64,000 bases of DNA from Patellaria atrata CBS 101060 (lineage: Eukaryota): the NCBI GenBank assembly GCA_010093705.1, contig MU006095.1, positions 558,001 through 622,000 of the forward strand, read 5' to 3'. A program made the translations under genes and the position numbers. This document shows positions 402-11,424 of the stretch, one piece after another (within the stretch, counting starts at the first letter, position 1; the number at the start of each line of letters is the position of its first letter). Under the pieces are notes generated by a model. It worked only from the letters and a program-made list of their open reading frames with translations. It ran no database searches and was not told the DNA's origin.

Positions 402-3400
402 ATGTCACGGCAGCAATACCCTTTTGCGGGTGACGACAGCGCGCCGTCTCCGCTGTAAGTTTGCATCTGATCGCCACCTGATCCTGTGAGCGAGGATCTA
501 ACTTGAATGACAGAGATCAAAGGCCGCCAAATCCATTCCCTACCGGACAGCCTCCATCTTTCAAGACAAATGTCAATCGCATGAAGACTAAGAGATGGGT
601 TGAAGCGAAGTCGTATTCTTACGATGGAGATGACTGGGGAGACGAATATGATGACTACGACGAGCCCGCTCTACCCCTAAAACCGACAGGTTTGAGGCAG
701 CAAGGCCATGCAGGCGGCGCTGGAGAACCCTCCCGTAGCTTTACAAACCCAGAGGCCCAAGGACGGCCGCCGGTACCACGGAAAAACTCTTTTGAGGCTG
801 GTGATGAGCGACGTACATTCTCATTGACATCTCCACAAAGCTCGCAAGGCTTTACTCGGCTCCCGCAAGTTGACACCACGAGATCATCTTCTGAGAATTA
901 CATACCTATCCCTAGTGGGGTTACACCAGCGTCTGGTATACCTCAACAATCACAAGGACCATATACTCAGTCCAATCGTGTCGCTAGTGCTGCGAGCTGG
1001 GTCGCACCCTCAGAAGTGAGTGAGACAACTTCTACGGGAGATCCACAACTACGTAGGGACTTCTCGCCGTCCGCGCTTCCACCTCCGCTACAAACTCGAA
1101 TGTCACCTCCTCCGGGTGTTGGCCACCAACCTCCTCCAACCAGCTTCCCACCACGAAAGAGTAGCATCGGCCAGCAATCTCCGTTAGCTCAAGCTCCGCC
1201 ACCTTTATCATCTGCAGCTGAACCATCTGTCGAACAGCGGGATCGTTCCAATAGTAACCCAGCAAAAGCGCCAGCATTCATTCGACCGGCGGACATCTAT
1301 AAACGCATCGAGGCAGAGCGCCAAAAGGAGCGTGCATCGCTCGACACGGAACGTCCCAGCCTAGACACCCTACGAGGACGTCCGACAGATGAGAGTTCGG
1401 AGGATCAGAAGCGAGCAGAGAGCGCAGGACGGAGCGGAGCTCGTACTAGTTTAGATCGTGTAGATGAGAGCCATGAGATTCAACACCAGCTCCCGCCGCT
1501 AGAAACTGTCGCTGAACGGAAGAGCGAATACATGCCTACCTATTCCGTTGAGGGGTCCAGTGAGGCAGCTGGCGCTGGAACGGGGACAATTGACCCAACC
1601 ATGTCAAGGCATGAAACTCGAGCCGATAACTCATCGCATCAGCGCTCTGACTCTGACTGGCAACCAACACTCCCTCCAGTCAGTAGGATGTCCACTTTCG
1701 GTGATGACTTCTGGAAATCCGGACATTCTCGGGAACAGAGTGTAGATACTACAACTACTCCAGTACCTGATTCTGCGCCAAAGGATGCTGCTGGCCTTCA
1801 GCATCAACCATCTCTCGGATTTAAATCAGTTGTCCATCAAGCATTTGATAGGAAGGATGATTCGTCTGTTCCCCCTACTCCTGTGTCACGTCTAGCATCT
1901 GGCGATGAAGGTGGTGTCTCGAGGAGCAACACGAATAGTACGACTGGCATAAGCCCCATTATCAGTCGGGTACCAAGCACTGCTGTTAGAGCGCGTGATA
2001 ACGCAACTCCTGCAATTGAAGAAGAGCCTGTTGATCCAACCATATCCAGGTCTCGCCCAAACTCCGGATTCTACCCTCCTGGAGTTCAAGTGGCTCGGAA
2101 ACCCTCTCCAAATCATTCCCGCAACGTGTCGTCGGAGTCTGCTAATTTCACACCCGGTTACCGGCGTGACTTGAACACACCAAGTCCTAATAATAGCCCC
2201 GCAAGGTCTCCAGCAATCGGAACGAGCCTGGAATTTCCGGTACCAGTAAGGGGTGAGCTATCGAATACCGGTCATATTGACTCTATCAAGAAAAATCTGC
2301 CTTCAAACCCGCAAGCCTATGCAACAAGAGAGGCGGATTTAGCTCACGATATTAATGCAAGCCCCGAGCATGGACCCAAATTATTCATAGATACCGTGAA
2401 GCAATCGCAGATCGGTTTTCTCGAGACACATAAGAGTCCGCCGTTGGATATCTGCCCTACCCAGGCGCCGAGTAACGCTATTCCGCGGGCTGAGTCGCCC
2501 TCTAAAGGAAGGGTTGCCGATCTTGCTGGGAAGTTTAATCAGATTGACTCTCGACGTAACTCAACAAACTCAGTGGGATCTAGACATAGCATTGACTCGT
2601 GGGAGAGGGAGAGTGTCAACGAGCTTCCATCCCGCAAGGGAAGCCCTTCTAAACAGCTTGCTCCGGCATTCGAACCTACCGCGCAACAAGCCGAACGCCC
2701 AACGTCGGCAAGAGAGCAGAGCTTCCGACCTAAGCTACCAGGACAATGGGAGTCTTTTGCGACAACTGTAGATTCCCCCACTCCGACCGAGCAAGAGCAT
2801 GGTCAAGGATTGTTCTTGAATGAAAATGTTTCACCCTCCATTGCACCACCGATAGCTCAACAAGCTGCAACACCCGTCGAGGTTTCGAATCATGTAAATG
2901 AGGATCTTGATATTGCTCCGACTACGACGAAACATCCTGCTGCTGCGCCGGAAGAGACGAAGGAGAAATCCCCGAGTTTTACCGAAAATCCAATGGCAGC
3001 CTTGGCAGCAGCTGGAGCGGCGATGGGCGATGCCATCAAAGCTTCGGTTGGTTTTGATCATTCTGACGAAGACAGAGGATCACAATCAGAGGTCAATAGA
3101 ACCGTTACAGACGTTCCTGAAACTTCTAAAGATGGTCAAGCTAAGGGTCGCTTCGTCGGCGACATTTATATTCGTCCCCTCACTCTGGACAGGACTGCAT
3201 CTTCAGTCGCTTCTAGCAGCCCTCCCACTCCTCCTCCAAAGGACGAAAGCAACAAGACGATATCCAATATTCATTCTGAAGAAAGCAAACTTCCTTCAGG
3301 TCTTACTAGCAAGGATAGTCATGAGCCGATGATGTTTAACACCTCACCGTCACTTGGGCGTCCACCTATTCTATCTCAGCTTAGTACAGATTACTCGCCA

Positions 3401-4747
3401 AATGATGAAGAGAGTGACAGGTTACGAAAAGAACTTGTTCGTACTCTGAGTCCTATTAAATCTGAGAATGATGGGAAACATAATGCTGGTCCGGCTCTAG
3501 CGCACCTGACAGTCGAGAACACATCGCAACCGGTCAACAGAGAGAGCTCTATACTGCCGGCAGAGTATGACACTTACTGGGCTGGTAAATTTGACGATTC
3601 AGAGGATGATAGCACCACACCTGTAAAGCGTTCCCTGGAGACAACTAGGGCTCCACCTGCGATTCAGGTGCCATCTTCTATCGCTACTGATACCCATCAG
3701 TTATCAAATCAGCGTCCAGAGGTTCCGCACGAACAACCAAGCTCAGCTGCTAGCGTTTCGGAAATCTCAAGATCTGAGGCCCGATTCAGCTGGGAGACAG
3801 GTACAGAACAGCTCAATCAGCCCTCGATTGCTAGCACTTTAGGGAGTCCAGCGCCAGTTAGCTCAACATATGATCAGGTTGCTTCAGCAACGGCTGAATC
3901 ACCAGCACACTCCGAGTCACCCGCTGATCGAAGTTTTGATGAAAAGCTACCTGCTCCGTCCGACGAACATCCGGCTATGCGGGATACTTCGGTCCTTGCA
4001 ACTCATCCTCAAACGGAAGCGGAAATCATATCACATGTGCCACCACCTGTCAGCAAAGTACCAGATGATCAACGAGCTTCTAGGGAAGGTTTGCACGTTG
4101 TAAATGCCGAACCAGGCGAAGTCCCCGATCCTGAACCTCCCGCCCAGGTATTCCAATCTGGGCATTCAGAAGACGCAAATCCCGCTGTGGATAATCACAA
4201 ATCTCTTCCTTCACATCATTCGCGAGTTGTGCCACTCGGTTTCCGCGAAATTTTAGCGTTGAAGTCTACCGCGGAACGTATAACTACCTACAACAAGACA
4301 CGCGAACAATTTGCCGGCATGGACACTGGTATTCATCATTGGATCAATTCTACAATTGCAAATCAACCAGAGCACGCATATTTGGCATCTCTTCCTCTTA
4401 GACCAACCGTCACGACAACGGGCCTCACAGGAACAGGAAAACACAAGTCATCCCCCTCCATATCGCGGTTTAATAAACATAGTCCCGGAAGTGGTCAAGC
4501 ATCTGGCTCCCATGGCCAACAACCCTTCGATTCTACAACATCTTCTCCTGCCGTAAACCATCCACCGCAGAGCCAATATAGCACGCCTAGTCCAAGTGGT
4601 AATAAGCTAAGTGGCCATCAAATGCAAGCTAAACTTCTCAAGAATGCTAGCGTTTTAGGTGGAAAGGCCACAACTGGCGCCAAAGGTCTGTTCGCGAAGG
4701 GAAAGAGTAGATTTAGGAGCTCTGGGTCTGAGAAGGTAGATCATTAA
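402..4747 (+). CDS. Large low-complexity (Ser/Pro-rich) fungal protein of unknown function, short isoform; exons 402-454 and 514-4747
   Basis: The 1414-aa ORF has no ATG at its start. ATG 402 plus a GTAAGT...CTAAC...CAG intron (455-513) joins it in frame (MSRQQYPF...SPL-DQRPPNPF). Motif-like islands are KTKRWVEAKSYSYDGDDWG, FIRPADIYKR and C-terminal KGLFAKGKSRFR. Confidence 0.85.
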
Positions 4748-5076
4748 CTTTCCCTTTCGAGTTAAACAGTCTATTTGTTTCGTCTTTGTTGCTTTGATTG
4801 TACGAACATCTTAATATAAAATGGCGAATCTGCTTTCGTCTATGGATATAAATGCCTCAGACATGGTCGGGTTTCGAAATAAACGTGGGATACCGGCTGG
4901 AGCGTTCTGTTCATTTACACTGTTTATGCATTTTCCTTCCTTTTCTCATGATTTGATGCGTCTCTTAATGATTTCATACCACATGTAGCGCTAGGGTCAC
5001 TGTCATCAATGTCAATCCACTTTTCACAATGGTTCCTACTGGATGAATGTGTATATTGATGCCTTCTTGTCCATAG

Positions 5077-8000
5077 GACTTCCTACCCCAGCGCCACCAT
5101 TCGATATCCTCGTTCGACATCGCCCATAATAGATCCCCCAGCGTTACAGATAAGAAGAAGAAAAGGCTCTCGTCTCCCTTTAGTCGCCGATCTCAATCAA
5201 GACCCACTAGCATCGTGCTCCCGATCACTACAGATTTCTCGGATTTTGAGCGAAATACACCGATGAGTGAAGGTGCGGTCGGCAGGCATAGAACGTCGTA
5301 TATCGATACTGGAAGGGTTGAATCGTGGAATCTACCTGAGCCACCGCCAATCCCAGATACGGATGACATCGACCGACTCGGCGTTTTACCAAGCCCCGCT
5401 ACGGAGCATTTCAAGCAGGAATTCAATGTTTCGGCAGAACAGCGTCTAAACGCGGTCGAAAAAGAGGAGAGAATTCTGCAATCTGTCGTTAGAAATTCAA
5501 CACCGAATATGAGTCGAAGCCAGACTCCAGACCTGAATCAGGGTCAAAGCAAGCACGAGCGAAGAATCAGTGTGGGTACGGTTGGAACGGGCTCCGAACT
5601 GAACTGGCCACTCGGTGACGTTAGTGCGAAAGAGTTGAGAGAAGTGAGGCGGAGTGTTGATATTCCTGTACCACCGCTACCCCAAGTCGAGGTCAAACTT
5701 AAATCTTTCGATGCTGATGACTCAATAACCGATAGCCCGGGTGATGACGTTCTGCCACATTCGCAAGTACATGGTGATGTAGCTCGTTCTGACTCCCCTA
5801 AGACAGTGTTATCTGGAGAGGAAGAATCTACTGATCTCCAAGCACGGCCGCGACTACAATCTCGCAACCCTCTTACTCGTTCTGGTACACATGCTGTATC
5901 TTCCCTGAGGTTGGATAATTCCGCCGTTCAATCACAACCATCAAAGTCTCTCGTCCGTTCTGCTACTCTCGGGACGGTGTCCTCCATTGAATCTCCTGAG
6001 CTTGGCCGCTCATATACACATAAAACTGTGTCAGAGATGGCTCTCTCGGATGGCATCCCTCCGGTGTCTGAGGTCAGTGCTACAGCAACAACACCGAAAC
6101 TTGCGGCCCTATCTCAACCACCAAGCCGGGTCTCCACCCCTGATTCCTGGGAGGGGAAAAGGGAACAAACACTTACTGAAGAAAATCTAAAAGAGTTGTT
6201 GGAGGGCCGGCATCCTATTCGGCATCCGTCGTTATCTAGCCTGGGGGCGGAAGATCGACCTGATTACCACACAGAAACAGGAAATAATCTTCGCATACCA
6301 GGTGCTTTTCTCGAAACTCCAGCCGGTGAGCTGGAGGAGTCTTTCCACGATGACCTGCACCCCGTAGCCTCAGAATCAGCAGAAATATCTACGGCCGAGG
6401 TCCAAACCGTCAAGTATACGTTAGCCACTCCAACTTCTATAACTTTGGAGTCTCCCAGCAACCGTACTGGGTTGAAGACGTCACCAATCAACCAAGAACC
6501 TGCCAGCGTTGATAATCAATCACCACCACATGAGCAGCCTACGGCTTCGACGCCTGAACGGGTTACTTTAAGGAGGTACAATACCAATGATCTTTATGGT
6601 GAGACTCCCGTCGTCAGTCCAGTGCGGAATAGTTTCTTGGAAAGAGAAAAAGAAGTAGAAACCAATGGTCCAAACATCGAACCTCGTCCCGCAACTCCAG
6701 ACCGTCCGATGTCTTTTGTCATGCTTCCACGTGATGGGGGTGTCCCACAGGATCGAATAAACCGGGATAGTGATAGCAGCGATGATGATGATGATGATGA
6801 TGATGACTTTGAGAAGATTGAACATGCCAAGCAATTTGAAGCAACTTCCCAGCAACTATCTCCAGAACCAAATCAAACGCAAGGCGACTCATACAATCAT
6901 CAGCGCGGGGTTTCAGGTGTTACTGAACATCCCGGACGCGCATCATTTGGTAAGGCCCAGTGGACTGGATTTGCTCATCCCTCCAAAGAAATGTCTGATA
7001 CTTCAACAATTCGACCCGATAGACGCTTTTCTGGAGGTAAGCCTCACTTTCCACATATCCACGATCCAACGTTAGTTCCAAGAACAAGACCCCCAATACC
7101 CGAAACCGGCACTGCAAGCATCGAGATGAAATCGGTTTCCCAACAAGATGGCGGTAGAATGATGTCGCCTCAAGTCATCGATCCTCGTAAATCTTCTCCA
7201 GAGTATCAGCTTCCTGGAATAGGACCACCTTCAGCACCATCGGTTGACACCGCTCAGCAGCAGCGCCCGCCTTCTCTGCTTCAGACAATTAGTAATAGGG
7301 CTACGTCGACATCGTCTTCAGCTCCCGCTCCTCCTAAGAATGATAGGATAAATCCTGAACTTACAAGTTCCGCACACCTCGATGTAGGTTATCCTTCCGT
7401 CTCTACTCTAGAAGATCACGCCATGGAGAAGAAGAAGCGCAAGTCTTCATTCTTTAGTGCATTCAATCAACCACCTGTTTCGAGTGGCGAGTCGCAAAGA
7501 AGCAAGGAAAGCACATCTGTGCAACCACCGCAGACTTCTGCTTCAAATATCTCGGACATGTTAACGGACCTTCCAGAGGCTAAAGGGAAGAGTATATTCC
7601 CGTTTGGCAGTCCCACACGTTTGTCTACCGAAGTACCAGAAGGAAAGAAGAAGAAAAGGTCATCTATCTTTAGTGGCATATTCGGAAGAACGAGCGCATC
7701 TACTTATGCTCTCAAACCAAGCAAGTTGCTAAAGTCTGAACCAAAAAAGGAAGAAAAACAACAGAAGCAACAAAAGCCTGTAGCTGTACCCCGACCTTCG
7801 GGTTCATATCAACAGGTATTCCCTCAGCCGCCACGACTGTCCTTCGGCTCGCAGCCGCCGAATCAACAGCAAGGGTTTCAGCAGAGACACTCGCCTGGTC
7901 CCTCTGCTCCTTCTCAACAGCATGTTCACGAACAGACAACTCAACCAGACTTTCGCCCCAAGGTTACACAAGAGGGCGACCAAAATCGGATTCTAACAGG

Positions 8001-11000
8001 ACCGCCTGGTTCAGCATATGAGACTACGCGACAACAGTATCAATTACAATGCACTCCCACTACCCAAGGCGAAGGTCGTCGTTCTGTTTCTATGCCTATC
8101 TCACCCCCGGCGAATGCTACTAGTTCTCCTTCACGTTCTGAAGCCTATCCACCCCTAGGAGGATATTATGCACCTCCAAATTTCCAAACTGCGCAAGGAT
8201 ATCCGGACGAGAAAATGATTCTGAAGGCCATAGCTGCACAGGAGCAGTCTTCTAAGCAAACTGCGCGGCAACAGCAAGAAACTGCTATGACCAGACGACG
8301 TTCTTCGCCGGCTGGATCCAGTGAATGGCAATCTCGTCATAATTCTATGGGACTCGGTGGTACTACCATACCTGAAGAACGCAATGCACCATCGGAGGAG
8401 GACCAGCGGTTCCGGCCGGAGCAGATCCAGCGTGCCTACACCGATGCTCCCAATGGCTACAATTACTCACAAAGCAGCGATAGGCATATCCCACCATCTA
8501 ACCCACAAAGTACGCAAGTTTCTGCACAACAAGCACTAGAACCTTCTCGGACAACTGAATCGCAGCCAAGTGATCCACGCAATCAAGTATCGGCTCAGAG
8601 CATGACTTCAGAGGCTCGCGGCCCTGTTCCTCAATGGCGAATTGAAGAAGAACCGGAGCAGTCAATCATGAAGGTTAACCCTAGAACTTCTGAAAAAATT
8701 GAAAAGGGAATTCAGGATGATAACTCTCATTCCTCAAACGTGCATAGATGTCAGTCCTCTGAACAGATACATCTACCCCTTAGTGTGCGCCATGAATCTA
8801 CGGACTCGTCGTTTGGTGAGCGCATAATTTCTCAAATTTCGATGCAGTCCCTTGGAGAATCGCAATCGGGAGCTCCTGACCAATCGGGATCTCGGTCTAG
8901 CAGCACTTCGACGATGGTTTCACCAATATCTTCTAGAGGATCGATTCCGCATCTTCAAAGCTTAGTTGGCGGTAAACTCCAGGGACAGAGGATGGGGAGC
9001 ATCAGTGAGGGTGGAGCCGCTTCTACACGAAATCAATCGGAACAACAAAGACCTTGGAGCGTGGAATTTCCCCCAGAAGATGATGAGGATAGGAAAGACA
9101 AACTAGGTTTCCCGAGAAGGCTCCCTTCCTCTCAACACCCATCGCAACAACATCGACATCAAATGGAGCAGAAAAAATTACCAAATCCACAATCCTCTAC
9201 ACAACAATCATCTTTGGGTCCGCAATCGGGAGTGCAGCAAGCTTCTCCAATAAATCATCAGACAAGTTTACAAGCTCTGGAGGGGACTATACAGCCTTCA
9301 GTTTCATCTCAACCGGTTACTACTCCACAAACTTCAGCACAAAATCCTCCTGTACCTCCCAAGGATATGGCATCAAATCTTTCCCTATCACTGCAACCCC
9401 CGGTATCTCAAAGCGGTACAGATACATCGGAGGCAGAGCGAATCAGAGCCGAACTAGAACGTGTTCGTGCCAAGTTGGCATCTGTTAGAAATACTCCTCA
9501 GACTGGACTGACTGTACCCGAACAACAACAGCTTAGAGTTGAAGATCCAACCCGAATGAGGGATCGAACGCCATCACCGTTAAGCCAAATTCTGGTTGAT
9601 CCTAGGTATCAACAAAGTCATTCTCCGCCGCAGCAGCAACTTTCACCCGACCTCAGATATCATCAATCCGGGATGACACTTCAGCCCTATCAGACACCCG
9701 ACCCTAGATTACAACAACGTATTCTATACGCTGATCGAAGGGGACAAAATGCGCCTCAGCAACAACAATACGTTGTGTCTCCACACCGCCAACCTTCTCC
9801 TAATGCGCCGTCTCACCCACAAACTATGATTGGCCACTACCAGACGCAACCTCAGGTTCGACAGAGTAATGATCCGCGCTATCAATCACCATCTCCGCCA
9901 CAACAGCAGCGCCCAACTTTACCCACAATTCGATCAGGTACTCAGCAGCCTCGGTTAATTGTACAGGAGCAATACTACACGCCACTCTCTATACCATTAC
10001 CATCACAGCGTACACAGTCTCAACAATCAATTTCTCCACCACAATCTTCCCCGCAACCCAGTCCTCAGCTGCCAACTCCTCAGAGGCAATCTCCCGACCA
10101 AGGCTCACAGCAGCATACTCAAATTCATCAACGAGTCCCTAGTACAGCTCCATTACCCATACGGATAAATCTACCTGATACTTCAGTCTCTAACGTTCGA
10201 CCACCAGCTGCATATCCTCTCCCCATCTCACCACCGGATGCAGATATAAGGTCTCCAGTCGACCCGCGTGCAAAAGCACTTCCTCCACCTCCACCGCCAA
10301 CAACAACGTTGCCCCCAAGCGCACCAATGAACTTAATCAATGCGCATAGCTCATTACGAAGCCAGGGCATTAATCCCATGACGGTAGAAGGGAGGAAGGC
10401 CTACGAAGAACAATTGGAGTTATTGCGGCAGCGACGACAGAAGCTAGAGGGCGAGGTTTTAGCTGCGGGTGGATCTTCTAATCAGAAAGACAGCGAGACT
10501 CAAATTGCGAATGTCCCATCGCAACCCAGCGTCCAGCAGGGTGAGCAACAGGCTGGCACCGCTACAGTCACAGAGCAAGCCCAAAGCGAGAAGCAACAAA
10601 GACAGCGCGAACGCGAAGCAAAACGAAAGCGCATCGAGCAAGAATCAATGTCCTCGCAGCCCACATCGTCGCAGCACCCTGTTCCTCAAGCTCAAGCAGA
10701 GGTACAGAGGTCGGTTCAACAACCTCAAGGATTCCAACAACCGCCGATCAATAAGAATATCAAACCTCTACTTCCTCCACTCCAACCTTTCAGTCCGATA
10801 GACTTGCCTTCTGGTTATCAGTTTCCGACTCCAGGCTCGGCGACACCAGCTGCTAGTGGTCAAGGCCCGTTCAAAAATCACGTCCAAGGCATTGTACATA
10901 TTCAGAACCCGCAGCCGGGAGCAGCCGGTGAAGATAGCTCACCGAAACAAAAGCAACAAGCTCACGCTTCCCGTAAAGACTCGGTGCAGACTCAGTCTCA

Positions 11001-11424
11001 GCAGCGGACCCTAACGGATATGATACCTAAGTCACCTGCTCCTGAACAAACGGTAGTTACGGCACCGGCCCCTGCCCCTCCTCTATTGCGGGAGTACGAA
11101 GACGTCTCTCCACCGGCACCAAGTGCATCATGGGGCATTGGCACCTCGTCTCCAACACCTCCTGTTGAGTCAGCACAGCAATCGAGGTCTCACCTCACGT
11201 CTCCGACCCTAGGATATACACCAAGTGTTGCTGTCCAACAGCAGCTTCAACAACAGCAACATGGACACGGAGAGTTAGGGCCAAACTTTCACGTCTCGGA
11301 GCTCGATGGGGCGGCGACCATGGTGCCGAGACCGAAGACACCAGATGAGGAGGAAGAGGTTGTGATGATGGGAGTTAGTTATCCCGGAATGGAATGGACG
11401 CCTATGTGGGATGGGGAATATTGA
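5077..11424 (+). CDS. Giant Gln/Pro/Ser-rich disordered coding region; either the last exon of the 402 gene or a separate gene from ATG 5263
   Basis: More than 2100 open codons start directly after a CATAG acceptor ending at 5076. It ends with MMGVSYPGMEWTPMWD, resembling a SYPGxEWxP tail I recall from uncharacterised fungal proteins (not verified). Confidence 0.8.
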   Translation, partial: DFLPQRHHSISSFDIAHNRSPSVTDKKKKRLSSPFSRRSQSRPTSIVLPITTDFSDFERNTPMSEGAVGRHRTSYIDTGRVESWNLPEPPPIPDTDDIDRLGVLPSPATEHFKQEFNVSAEQRLNAVEKEERILQSVVRNSTPNMSRSQTPDLNQGQSKHERRISVGTVGTGSELNWPLGDVSAKELREVRRSVDIPVPPLPQVEVKLKSFDADDSITDSPGDDVLPHSQVHGDVARSDSPKTVLSGEEESTDLQARPRLQSRNPLTRSGTHAVSSLRLDNSAVQSQPSKSLVRSATLGTVSSIESPELGRSYTHKTVSEMALSDGIPPVSEVSATATTPKLAALSQPPSRVSTPDSWEGKREQTLTEENLKELLEGRHPIRHPSLSSLGAEDRPDYHTETGNNLRIPGAFLETPAGELEESFHDDLHPVASESAEISTAEVQTVKYTLATPTSITLESPSNRTGLKTSPINQEPASVDNQSPPHEQPTASTPERVTLRRYNTNDLYGETPVVSPVRNSFLEREKEVETNGPNIEPRPATPDRPMSFVMLPRDGGVPQDRINRDSDSSDDDDDDDDDFEKIEHAKQFEATSQQLSPEPNQTQGDSYNHQRGVSGVTEHPGRASFGKAQWTGFAHPSKEMSDTSTIRPDRRFSGGKPHFPHIHDPTLVPRTRPPIPETGTASIEMKSVSQQDGGRMMSPQVIDPRKSSPEYQLPGIGPPSAPSVDTAQQQRPPSLLQTISNRATSTSSSAPAPPKNDRINPELTSSAHLDVGYPSVSTLEDHAMEKKKRKSSFFSAFNQPPVSSGESQRSKESTSVQPPQTSASNISDMLTDLPEAKGKSIFPFGSPTRLSTEVPEGKKKKRSSIFSGIFGRTSASTYALKPSKLLKSEPKKEEKQQKQQKPVAVPRPSGSYQQVFPQPPRLSFGSQPPNQQQGFQQRHSPGPSAPSQQHVHEQTTQPDFRPKVTQEGDQNRILTGPPGSAYETTRQQYQLQCTPTTQGEGRRSVSMPISPPANATSSPSRSEAYPPLGGYYAPPNFQTAQGYPDEKMILKAIAAQEQSSKQTARQQQETAMTRRRSSPAGSSEWQSRHNSMGLGGTTIPEERNAPSEEDQRFRPEQIQRAYTDAPNGYNYSQSSDRHIPPSNPQSTQVSAQQALEPSRTTESQPSDPRNQVSAQSMTSEARGPVPQWRIEEEPEQSIMKVNPRTSEKIEKGIQDDNSHSSNVHRCQSSEQIHLPLSVRHESTDSSFGERIISQISMQSLGESQSGAPDQSGSRSSSTSTMVSPISSRGSIPHLQSLVGGKLQGQRMGSISEGGAASTRNQSEQQRPWSVEFPPEDDEDRKDKLGFPRRLPSSQHPSQQHRHQMEQKKLPNPQSSTQQSSLGPQSGVQQASPINHQTSLQALEGTIQPSVSSQPVTTPQTSAQNPPVPPKDMASNLSLSLQPPVSQSGTDTSEAERIRAELERVRAKLASVRNTPQTGLTVPEQQQLRVEDPTRMRDRTPSPLSQILVDPRYQQSHSPPQQQLSPDLRYHQSGMTLQPYQTPDPRLQQRILYADRRGQNAPQQQQYVVSPHRQPSPNAPSHPQTMIGHYQTQPQVRQSNDPRYQSPSPPQQQRPTLPTIRSGTQQPRLIVQEQYYTPLSIPLPSQRTQSQQSISPPQSSPQPSPQLPTPQRQSPDQGSQQHTQIHQRVPSTAPLPIRINLPDTSVSNVRPPAAYPLPISPPDADIRSPVDPRAKALPPPPPPTTTLPPSAPMNLINAHSSLRSQGINPMTVEGRKAYEEQLELLRQRRQKLEGEVLAAGGSSNQKDSETQIANVPSQPSVQQGEQQAGTATVTEQAQSEKQQRQREREAKRKRIEQESMSSQPTSSQHPVPQAQAEVQRSVQQPQGFQQPPINKNIKPLLPPLQPFSPIDLPSGYQFPTPGSATPAASGQGPFKNHVQGIVHIQNPQPGAAGEDSSPKQKQQAHASRKDSVQTQSQQRTLTDMIPKSPAPEQTVVTAPAPAPPLLREYEDVSPPAPSASWGIGTSSPTPPVESAQQSRSHLTSPTLGYTPSVAVQQQLQQQQHGHGELGPNFHVSELDGAATMVPRPKTPDEEEEVVMMGVSYPGMEWTPMWDGEY
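6780..6806 (+). repeat. (GAT)n microsatellite encoding poly-Asp
   Basis: About 8 tandem GAT units inside the ORF (SSDDDDDDDDDF). Confidence 0.9.

Follow-up and report, generated by a model that had tools for sequence, protein, structure and literature searches.

A likely choice between splicing and polyadenylation at a conserved intron between two long reading frames of Patellaria atrata

Results

Organization of the locus

The window analysed here is a stretch of 64,000 nucleotides (nt) from the fungus Patellaria atrata CBS 101060 (GenBank assembly GCA_010093705.1, contig MU006095.1, positions 558,001 to 622,000 of the forward strand), in which two long open reading frames, ORF1 and ORF2, follow each other on the same strand with a gap of 329 nt between the stop of the former and the opening of the latter (Table 1). 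The subject of this work is the intron predicted between them, intron 2. At the 5' end of the locus, a short exon 1 carries the likely start codon and is separated from the body of ORF1 by a canonical intron 1; the homologous N-termini (MS..SPLD..) are uninterrupted in complementary DNA (cDNA) contigs of relatives. The Ser/Pro-rich translation of ORF1 holds conserved islands (alignment A1), with KTKRWVEAKSYSYDGDDWG near the N-terminus and FREILALKS...AKGLFAKGKSRFR towards the end.

Intron 2 has a G+C content of 38.7%, compared to 50-51% in ORF1 and ORF2, and contains six stops in the ORF1 frame. At the end of ORF1 the sequence reads GAGAAG^GTAGATCATTAA (the caret marks the splice point), that is, the codons GAG AAG ^ GTA GAT CAT TAA, in such a way that the stop stands three codons past the donor. 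The fungal 5' splice site consensus is GTRNGT and that of the branch point CTRAY. The donor GTAGAT departs from the former, which marks it as a weak site, still compatible with an intron, and the TTGAT found 17 nt before the AG has one mismatch from the latter. The acceptor reads CTTCTTGTCCATAG^GAC or, over a longer stretch, TTGATGCCTTCTTGTCCATAG^GAC; its match with the opening of ORF2 is partly built in, as its own TAG provides the in-frame stop that limits this frame. Joining the three exons produces 10623 nt encoding 3540 amino acids (aa) without internal stops, whereas translation continued past 4735 yields a product of 1428 aa with the C-terminus GSEKVDH. A preliminary description of this DNA had proposed the phase-0 donor AAG^GTAGAT with its KVDH tail, the phase-0 acceptor, an ORF2 whose first ATG lies 62 codons in, an AATAAA within the intron and a 3540-aa fusion; all of these are found in the sequence, the length of the fusion being obtained when exon 1 and intron 1 are included. 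ORF1 and ORF2 of P. atrata are most likely parts of one gene with three exons.

Table 1. Features of the ORF1-ORF2 locus in window coordinates.
Feature	Position	Strand	Remarks
Exon 1	402..454	+	Likely start ATG 402-404; MSRQQYPFAGDDSAPSP, then 2 bases of a Leu codon
Intron 1	455..513	+	59 nt, canonical: GTAAGT ... CTAAC ... CAG
ORF1	482-4747	+	Open stop-to-stop
Exon 2 (ORF1 body)	514..4735	+	Ser/Pro-rich with conserved islands
Intron 2	4736..5076	+	341 nt; GT 4736-4737, AG 5075-5076
5' splice site GTAGAT after AAG	4736..4741	+	Non-consensus: A, not G, at +5
Retained tail Val-Asp-His, then TAA (4745-4747)	4736..4747	+	Translated only with intron 2 kept
AATAAA	4878-4883	+	Within intron 2; cDNA ends of relatives lie much closer to its 3' end
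TGTAGC (4984) ... TCAATGTCAATCC (5006-5018)	4984..5018	+	Same order as block of related clade; weak likeness, by eye
Branch-point-like TTGAT (A at 5059), pyrimidine-rich stretch, acceptor TAG	5056..5076	+	Same layout in relatives
ORF2	5077-11424	+	Open stop-to-stop
Exon 3 (ORF2)	5077..11424	+	2115 codons and stop; Ser/Pro/Gln-rich
Conserved motif KKKKRLSSPFSRRSQSRPTSIVLP	5152..5223	+	Upstream of first ATG (5263); alignment A3
C-terminal motif SYPGMEWTPMWDGEY	11377..11421	+	Long product only

Conservation of the intron boundaries

Alignment A1, made of 13 ORF1-like proteins, was used to scan metagenome contigs, yielding 73 loci (L numbers below), and a profile of the ORF1 C-terminus recovered 57 frame ends, the window included, which represented 30 lineages after dereplication at 90% nucleotide identity. 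Fifty-two of the 57 ends had the form ...[DE]K-V-(D/E)-(x)-stop or ...EK-V-stop, reading AAG GTA. This pair of codons was kept in 28/30 lineages, the exceptions being L066, with another tail, and the L068 group, with CAG^GTGCAA. The donor Val codon was invariably GTA in the AAG^GTA lineages, GTA making up 8-33% of the Val codons in the same ORFs, and the codon preceding AAG varied freely (GAA, GAG, GAC or GAT). An invariant GTA amid variable synonymous sites therefore reveals a constraint at the nucleotide level, as expected of a splice donor.

Every one of the 28 AAG^GTA lineages had an in-frame stop 1-3 codons past the donor. Its three forms (KV, KVD or KVDx before the stop) suggest that the unspliced message is translated. 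Such a stop is not needed in a constitutive intron but is needed in a read-through message that is translated.

On the downstream side, a long + strand frame opened 121-380 nt past ORF1 in 32 of the 33 loci with 3' sequence, the exception being the L068 lineage, and its offset relative to ORF1 was 0, 1 or 2 depending on the lineage. This variable offset fits an intron and excludes read-through. The implied homologous introns measured 169-388 nt (median 267 in 25 lineages), with GT...AG ends and phase 0 in 25/25. A phase-0 YAG acceptor (TAG in 10 lineages, CAG in 15) was found in each of them at 0-45 codons from the frame opening, and at no more than seven codons in 22. In 21 of the 25, a CTRAY- or TTGAT-like branch motif lay at most 45 nt upstream of the acceptor, the layout in relatives being mostly CTGAT or TTGAT (also written C/TTGATG), 15-25 nt, and then YAG. 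The donor carried A at +5 in every one of the 25 lineages (GTAGAT 15, GTAGAC 4, GTAGAG 1, GTATAA 4, GTATAG 1), whereas the donor of intron 1 carries G at this position (GTAAGT, GTAGGT or GTACGT). Modest when the window is taken alone, the coincidences of splice signals are lifted far above chance by the comparison with relatives. The preliminary description had called for a check of whether orthologues keep EK^GT before the stop and a downstream frame ending in SYPGxEWxP: AAG^GTA was kept in 28 lineages, a long downstream frame followed in 32/33 loci, and the C-terminal motif was present in many loci.

In the clade of L013, L047 and L008, intron 2 was conserved as well as the adjoining coding DNA, the identities between L013 and L047 being 81.6% for intron 2, 79.6% for ORF1 and 72.2% for ORF2; over wider distances its conservation was confined to the two ends. 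Taken together, the comparative data argue strongly for a single gene in which intron 2 would be a real, ancient, phase-0 spliceosomal intron with a weak donor just before the ORF1 stop.

The possibility of a structured intron was also considered and dropped. Intron 2 of the window did not fold better than its shuffled versions (z = +1.22; 88 of 100 shuffles folded at least as well). A long hairpin (GGACTAC.. with ..GTAGCyCC, including the conserved TGTAGC) was predicted in the middle of the introns of L013 (11044-11328), L047 (4570-4855), L008 (4947-5243) and L044 (13763-14034), for which a compensatory change was found in just 2 of 38 pairs among the four sequences.

A more distant relative, the cDNA-like contig L066, has an N-terminus reading ..QKTKKWTTAPSYNYDGDDW and an ORF1 that ends in KGKSRFAPGSVRTKSSGNYEAS and a stop, without the KV donor tail (3952-4035); the intron and the extension may be missing there.

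Transcripts of related fungi

Several metagenome contigs proved to derive from RNA. L014 and L015 match the genomic L013 at 99-100% minus 53 nt, L049 matches L047 and L048 at 99.6-99.9% minus 57 nt, and L016 matches L008 at 83-86% minus 48 nt. In all of these pairs the missing pieces are the homologues of intron 1 (GTAGGT or GTACGT...CTGAC...TAG), lacking from L014, L015, L016 and L049 compared to the genomic L013, L047 and L008. These four contigs, along with L068, L069 and L070, show continuous N-termini (MSGPFRF..SPLDRSASPF), which makes seven cDNA contigs with intron 1 spliced.

Three of them, L015, L049 and L016, stop 229, 226 and 218 nt past the stop codon of ORF1, which leaves 44, 48 and 51 nt to the acceptor; their ends align with one another. 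These look like real RNA ends, because a branch between isoforms would be expected to break a de Bruijn assembly after the acceptor rather than before it. L028 and L059 end 187 and 245 nt past the stop; their contig names share prefixes with proven cDNA contigs, and they may be cDNA as well.

Just before the cDNA ends, the clade of L013, L047, L008 and L044 shares the conserved blocks TGTAGC..CATAATCAT..TCAAyGTAATC, and the segment of the window with the same order of elements (Table 1) is a candidate region for the 3' end signals of a short messenger RNA. By homology, the RNA end in the window may lie near 5010-5035, away from the AATAAA at 4878. The proposal that this hexamer serves as the poly(A) signal was not supported, the ends of the relatives falling close to the acceptor side of the intron. 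As for the switch between intronic polyadenylation and splicing put forward at the same time, the short RNA was supported, indirectly, by the cDNA contigs of relatives, but the switching itself was not, as spliced RNA appeared in no contig.

A search of sequencing runs listed none from RNA that holds the window. The two runs found are genomic, with flat cover over genes and spacers and without joints, and are uninformative on expression.

A different arrangement was found in L068, L069 and L070, which belong to one lineage and measure 8.2-8.6 kb: ORF1 is followed by a 1.7-kb spacer without a long frame and then by ORF2-like sequence. In L068 (3598-5290), and also in L069, L070 and L072, ORF1 ends in DKQVQ and a stop, with a donor-like CAG^GTGCAA; a protein of Plenodomus lindquistii (P0134) has a similar tail. 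The ORF2-like part of this lineage matches relatives only from approximately residue 640-740 of ORF2 (1805 of the fused protein P0024), and the usual N-terminal motifs of ORF2 are missing from it.

Coding sequence of ORF2

The first ATG in the frame of ORF2 is found at 5263, and across 25 lineages the first ATG lies 8-318 codons past the acceptor at positions that are not homologous between them. In nine Dothideomycete lineages, conserved motifs start directly after the acceptor (SREASEEPE, KKRRxSSPFxRxSRSRSRPxSIVLP, RLGILPSPAKSAFS and LLQSVIRNSTPP). The second of them is located at 5152-5223 of the window, and in this region the residues R30, S33, F35, R42, P43, S45 and P49 are invariant in all nine. 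According to these alignments, ORF2 is a conserved coding sequence without a conserved ATG and appears to have no start of its own. At the other end, the downstream frame of many loci terminates with YPGxEW (...SYPGxEWxP..W..), as do deposited and metagenome proteins.

Deposited gene models

A search with the whole of ORF2 as a protein returned only a match to itself, its low-complexity words having saturated the candidates. A deposited protein of P. atrata CBS 101060 itself, M501DRAFT_765085 (P0003, 2510 aa), is 100% identical to the translation of the window and contains ...SRFRSSGSEK^DFLPQRHH..., which corresponds to the 4735/5077 junction. Intron 2 is therefore not new, since a public model already uses it. 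The fusion at the homologous [DE]K^ position recurs in five further deposited models: K490DRAFT_63294 of Saccharata proteae (P0004, 2785 aa, complete from an N-terminal KTKKWVEAK motif to SYPGMEWTP), K469DRAFT_314160 of Zopfia rhizophila (P0020, 3191 aa), GQ44DRAFT_817594 of Phaeosphaeriaceae sp. (P0024, 3305 aa), ALECFALPRED_002946 of Alectoria fallacina (P0045, 2527 aa) and CIHG_10516 of Coccidioides immitis (P0183). The species with fused models belong to three fungal classes, Dothideomycetes, Lecanoromycetes and Eurotiomycetes. All six models share the junction after [DE]K proposed in the preliminary description, and differ from our reading in presenting the intron as constitutive, with the short isoform unrecorded. 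Along with the splice signals conserved in 25 lineages, they support the intron at 4736-5076 and the 3540-aa fusion of the preliminary description.

An exhaustive profile search with the N-terminal region of ORF2 recovered 29 proteins, three of them fused (P0003, P0020 and P0024). Those that start inside ORF2 do so at non-homologous Met residues, several of them at the ATG within an acceptor motif ATGCAG^. Among 120 shorter proteins, the ends were of the KV type in 103, KVDKP or KVDKS in 5, KAEK in 6, DKQV(Q) in 2 and KGDH in 1, two had no motif and one was fused.

Discussion

A choice between splicing and polyadenylation

The above results are best explained by a splicing-versus-polyadenylation choice at intron 2, which we regard as likely. 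In the proposed mechanism, the 5' splice site AAG^GTAGAT is maintained in a non-consensus form with an in-frame stop within three codons, and a weak donor with a stop right after it would therefore give a transcript with two fates. If the donor is not used, cleavage and polyadenylation inside the intron would produce the 1428-aa protein ending in ...SGSEKVDH, and this intron-terminated RNA would be the abundant one in relatives. If it is used, the 2115 codons of ORF2 would be joined, resulting in a 3540-aa protein with additional short conserved motifs and the SYPGxEW C-terminus. The full statement, namely one gene with a conserved weak-donor intron 2 of which both fates are used, is probably correct. 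For P. atrata itself, we infer the splicing, the true poly(A) end of the short RNA and a regulated ratio of the products.

A number of observations weigh against this proposal. None of the six cDNA contigs extending to the donor is spliced at this site, each keeping the donor, the stop and sequence beyond it; the spliced junction was seen in no RNA-derived contig among the 73 loci; and a search for short protein fragments found none derived from RNA that spans the junction, just the Coccidioides gene model continuing past it. Nevertheless, the six contigs are a small sample from other species, compatible with minor or conditional splicing. The contig ends are imperfect evidence of RNA ends, because the cDNA contigs have no poly(A) tail and a genomic-type contig, L002, likewise ends 194 nt past the stop.

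Regarding the deposited proteins, P0003 is of poor quality as a model and truncated at both ends: its start is placed at an internal ATG (1532), and it exits ORF2 at 9042 to resume at 9126 in another frame. The skipped 83 nt (9043-9125) begin with CA and end with CC instead of GT-AG, and the conserved SYPGMEWTP end is lost; this skip is probably an artefact of modelling or of a cDNA. Most annotations split the locus, as 26 of the 29 proteins found with the ORF2 profile start inside ORF2 and 117 of the 120 shorter ones end at the ORF1 stop; many of these annotations stem from gene callers unable to model introns, but many others come from eukaryotic gene finders. Six proteins from Bipolaris, Curvularia and others end in ...EKAEK (P0132, P0139, P0144, P0157, P0161 and P0163), with Ala in the place of Val, and therefore a GT is impossible at the usual place of the donor; a GC-AG donor or the loss of the joint could be the case in this group. 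Finally, a Lecanoromycete-like group (L012, L030, L032, L050, L052, L061, L063 and L067) has a conserved Met (..(R/Q)GMQ..) within the first 20 codons after the acceptor, 14-17 codons past it, which could be an ordinary residue or an independent start for a product of ORF2 alone.

Part of these observations would be expected if ORF1 and ORF2 were two independent neighbour genes, the messenger RNA of ORF1 ending in the 329-nt gap and ORF2 having its own promoter and an internal ATG, with the GT and AG never joined. The majority of gene models are split in this way, as in Glonium stellatum, where two neighbouring locus tags of the same contig, 370920 and 370919, share the locus; moreover, the cDNA contigs of relatives end short of ORF2, spliced RNA was not seen, and the Met 14-17 codons into ORF2 is conserved, in one clade. 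However, no start codon is conserved across lineages, and the first ATG, which stands 62 codons into ORF2 in the window and up to 318 in other lineages, is preceded by conserved coding sequence. The invariant GTA Val codon would be left unexplained, as would the conservation of branch point and acceptor, in phase with ORF2 in every case, and a terminator, a promoter and a 5' untranslated region would need to fit in 121-380 nt. Also, the 8.2-8.6 kb cDNA contigs of one lineage span ORF1 into ORF2-like sequence. Two genes are unlikely, although this is the most probable of the alternatives.

The fused models in six genomes and the conservation of splice signals and phase could be read instead as signs of an ordinary constitutive intron, with the 3540-aa protein as the sole functional product, the read-through RNAs being unprocessed or prematurely terminated and the early stop incidental. 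This is more doubtful still, given that the same cDNA contigs that lose intron 1 keep intron 2 (6/6), that the donor is weak at +5 in all 25 lineages while that of intron 1 is not, that the stop follows in all 28 AAG^GTA lineages in its three forms, and that conservation in one clade is no lower in the intron than in the neighbouring coding DNA. A third explanation, stop-codon read-through or ribosomal frameshifting from ORF1 into ORF2, has nothing in its favour other than the adjacency of the frames on one strand, and was rejected as contradicted by the sequence: six stops in the ORF1 frame stand between 4736 and 5076, ORF2 of the window is in another frame, and the relative frame differs among lineages. 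Its probability is negligible.

Comparison with known systems and nature of the proteins

The classic case of a choice between splicing and cleavage/polyadenylation at a composite terminal exon is the immunoglobulin mu heavy chain, with its secreted and membrane forms. There, a suboptimal donor near the end of an exon competes with a poly(A) site in the intron that follows, an early stop giving the short product, and the same would apply here; the former is a vertebrate system with known regulators, whereas the present case is known from the sequence layout and the contigs of relatives. In fungi, one report describes malate dehydrogenase genes in which the retention or removal of the last intron produces different C-termini, the retained form being an abundant messenger RNA (PMC7491326). 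The likeness lies in an intron near the 3' end that sets the C-terminus and in the abundance of the retained form; the difference is that a short peroxisomal targeting signal is at stake there (PMC7491326), compared to an extension of 2115 residues and a donor placed right ahead of the stop that closes a 1425-codon frame in the present case. Therefore, the choice would be of a known kind, that of the composite terminal exon, with an unusually large difference between products and no new kind of mechanism. Among the matches listed from the literature on intronic polyadenylation in fungi, on Fyv8 and on P. atrata, no published account of this isoform choice was found.

In terms of annotation, a problem is corrected: six deposited genomes carry the locus as a single gene, most others as a pair. 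If the proposal is true, one regulated gene is wrongly presented as two in the annotations of most of these fungal genomes, and a fungal proteome would have been diversified in an unusually deep and clean manner by a weak splice site competing with an intronic RNA end, with a very large effect on the size of the product (1428 versus 3540 residues).

A relation with the Fyv8 family (Pfam PF27837; yeast FYV8) is a candidate based on two leads: a precomputed PF27837 match on P0183, a relative with the same C-terminal motif of ORF1, and an Atlas cluster with a score of 0.91 and Fyv8 on 25% of its members. In a local copy of Pfam, which may not include PF27837, ORF1, ORF2 and 12-13 orthologues had no match at E up to 10. 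The function of yeast FYV8 is poorly known; among the matches listed, the literature that names it does so in passing. It is conceivable, and we propose it only tentatively, that the weak-donor choice predates the split of Dothideomycetes, Eurotiomycetes and Lecanoromycetes, with a Fyv8-like low-complexity protein of approximately 1400 aa made alone or with a tail of approximately 2100 aa carrying an RSxSxP-type basic/Ser cluster, LGILPSPAKS, LQSVIRxSTPP and the terminal SYPGxEW.

Ser, Pro and Gln abound in both parts, and hydrophobic residues amount to approximately 19-20%, a composition consistent with long disordered regions. Inside the conserved basic/Ser motif just past the acceptor, which only the long product would carry, RSQSRP is found at 5188-5205 of the window (RSRSRP in relatives), matching RSxSxP, a consensus for 14-3-3 binding.

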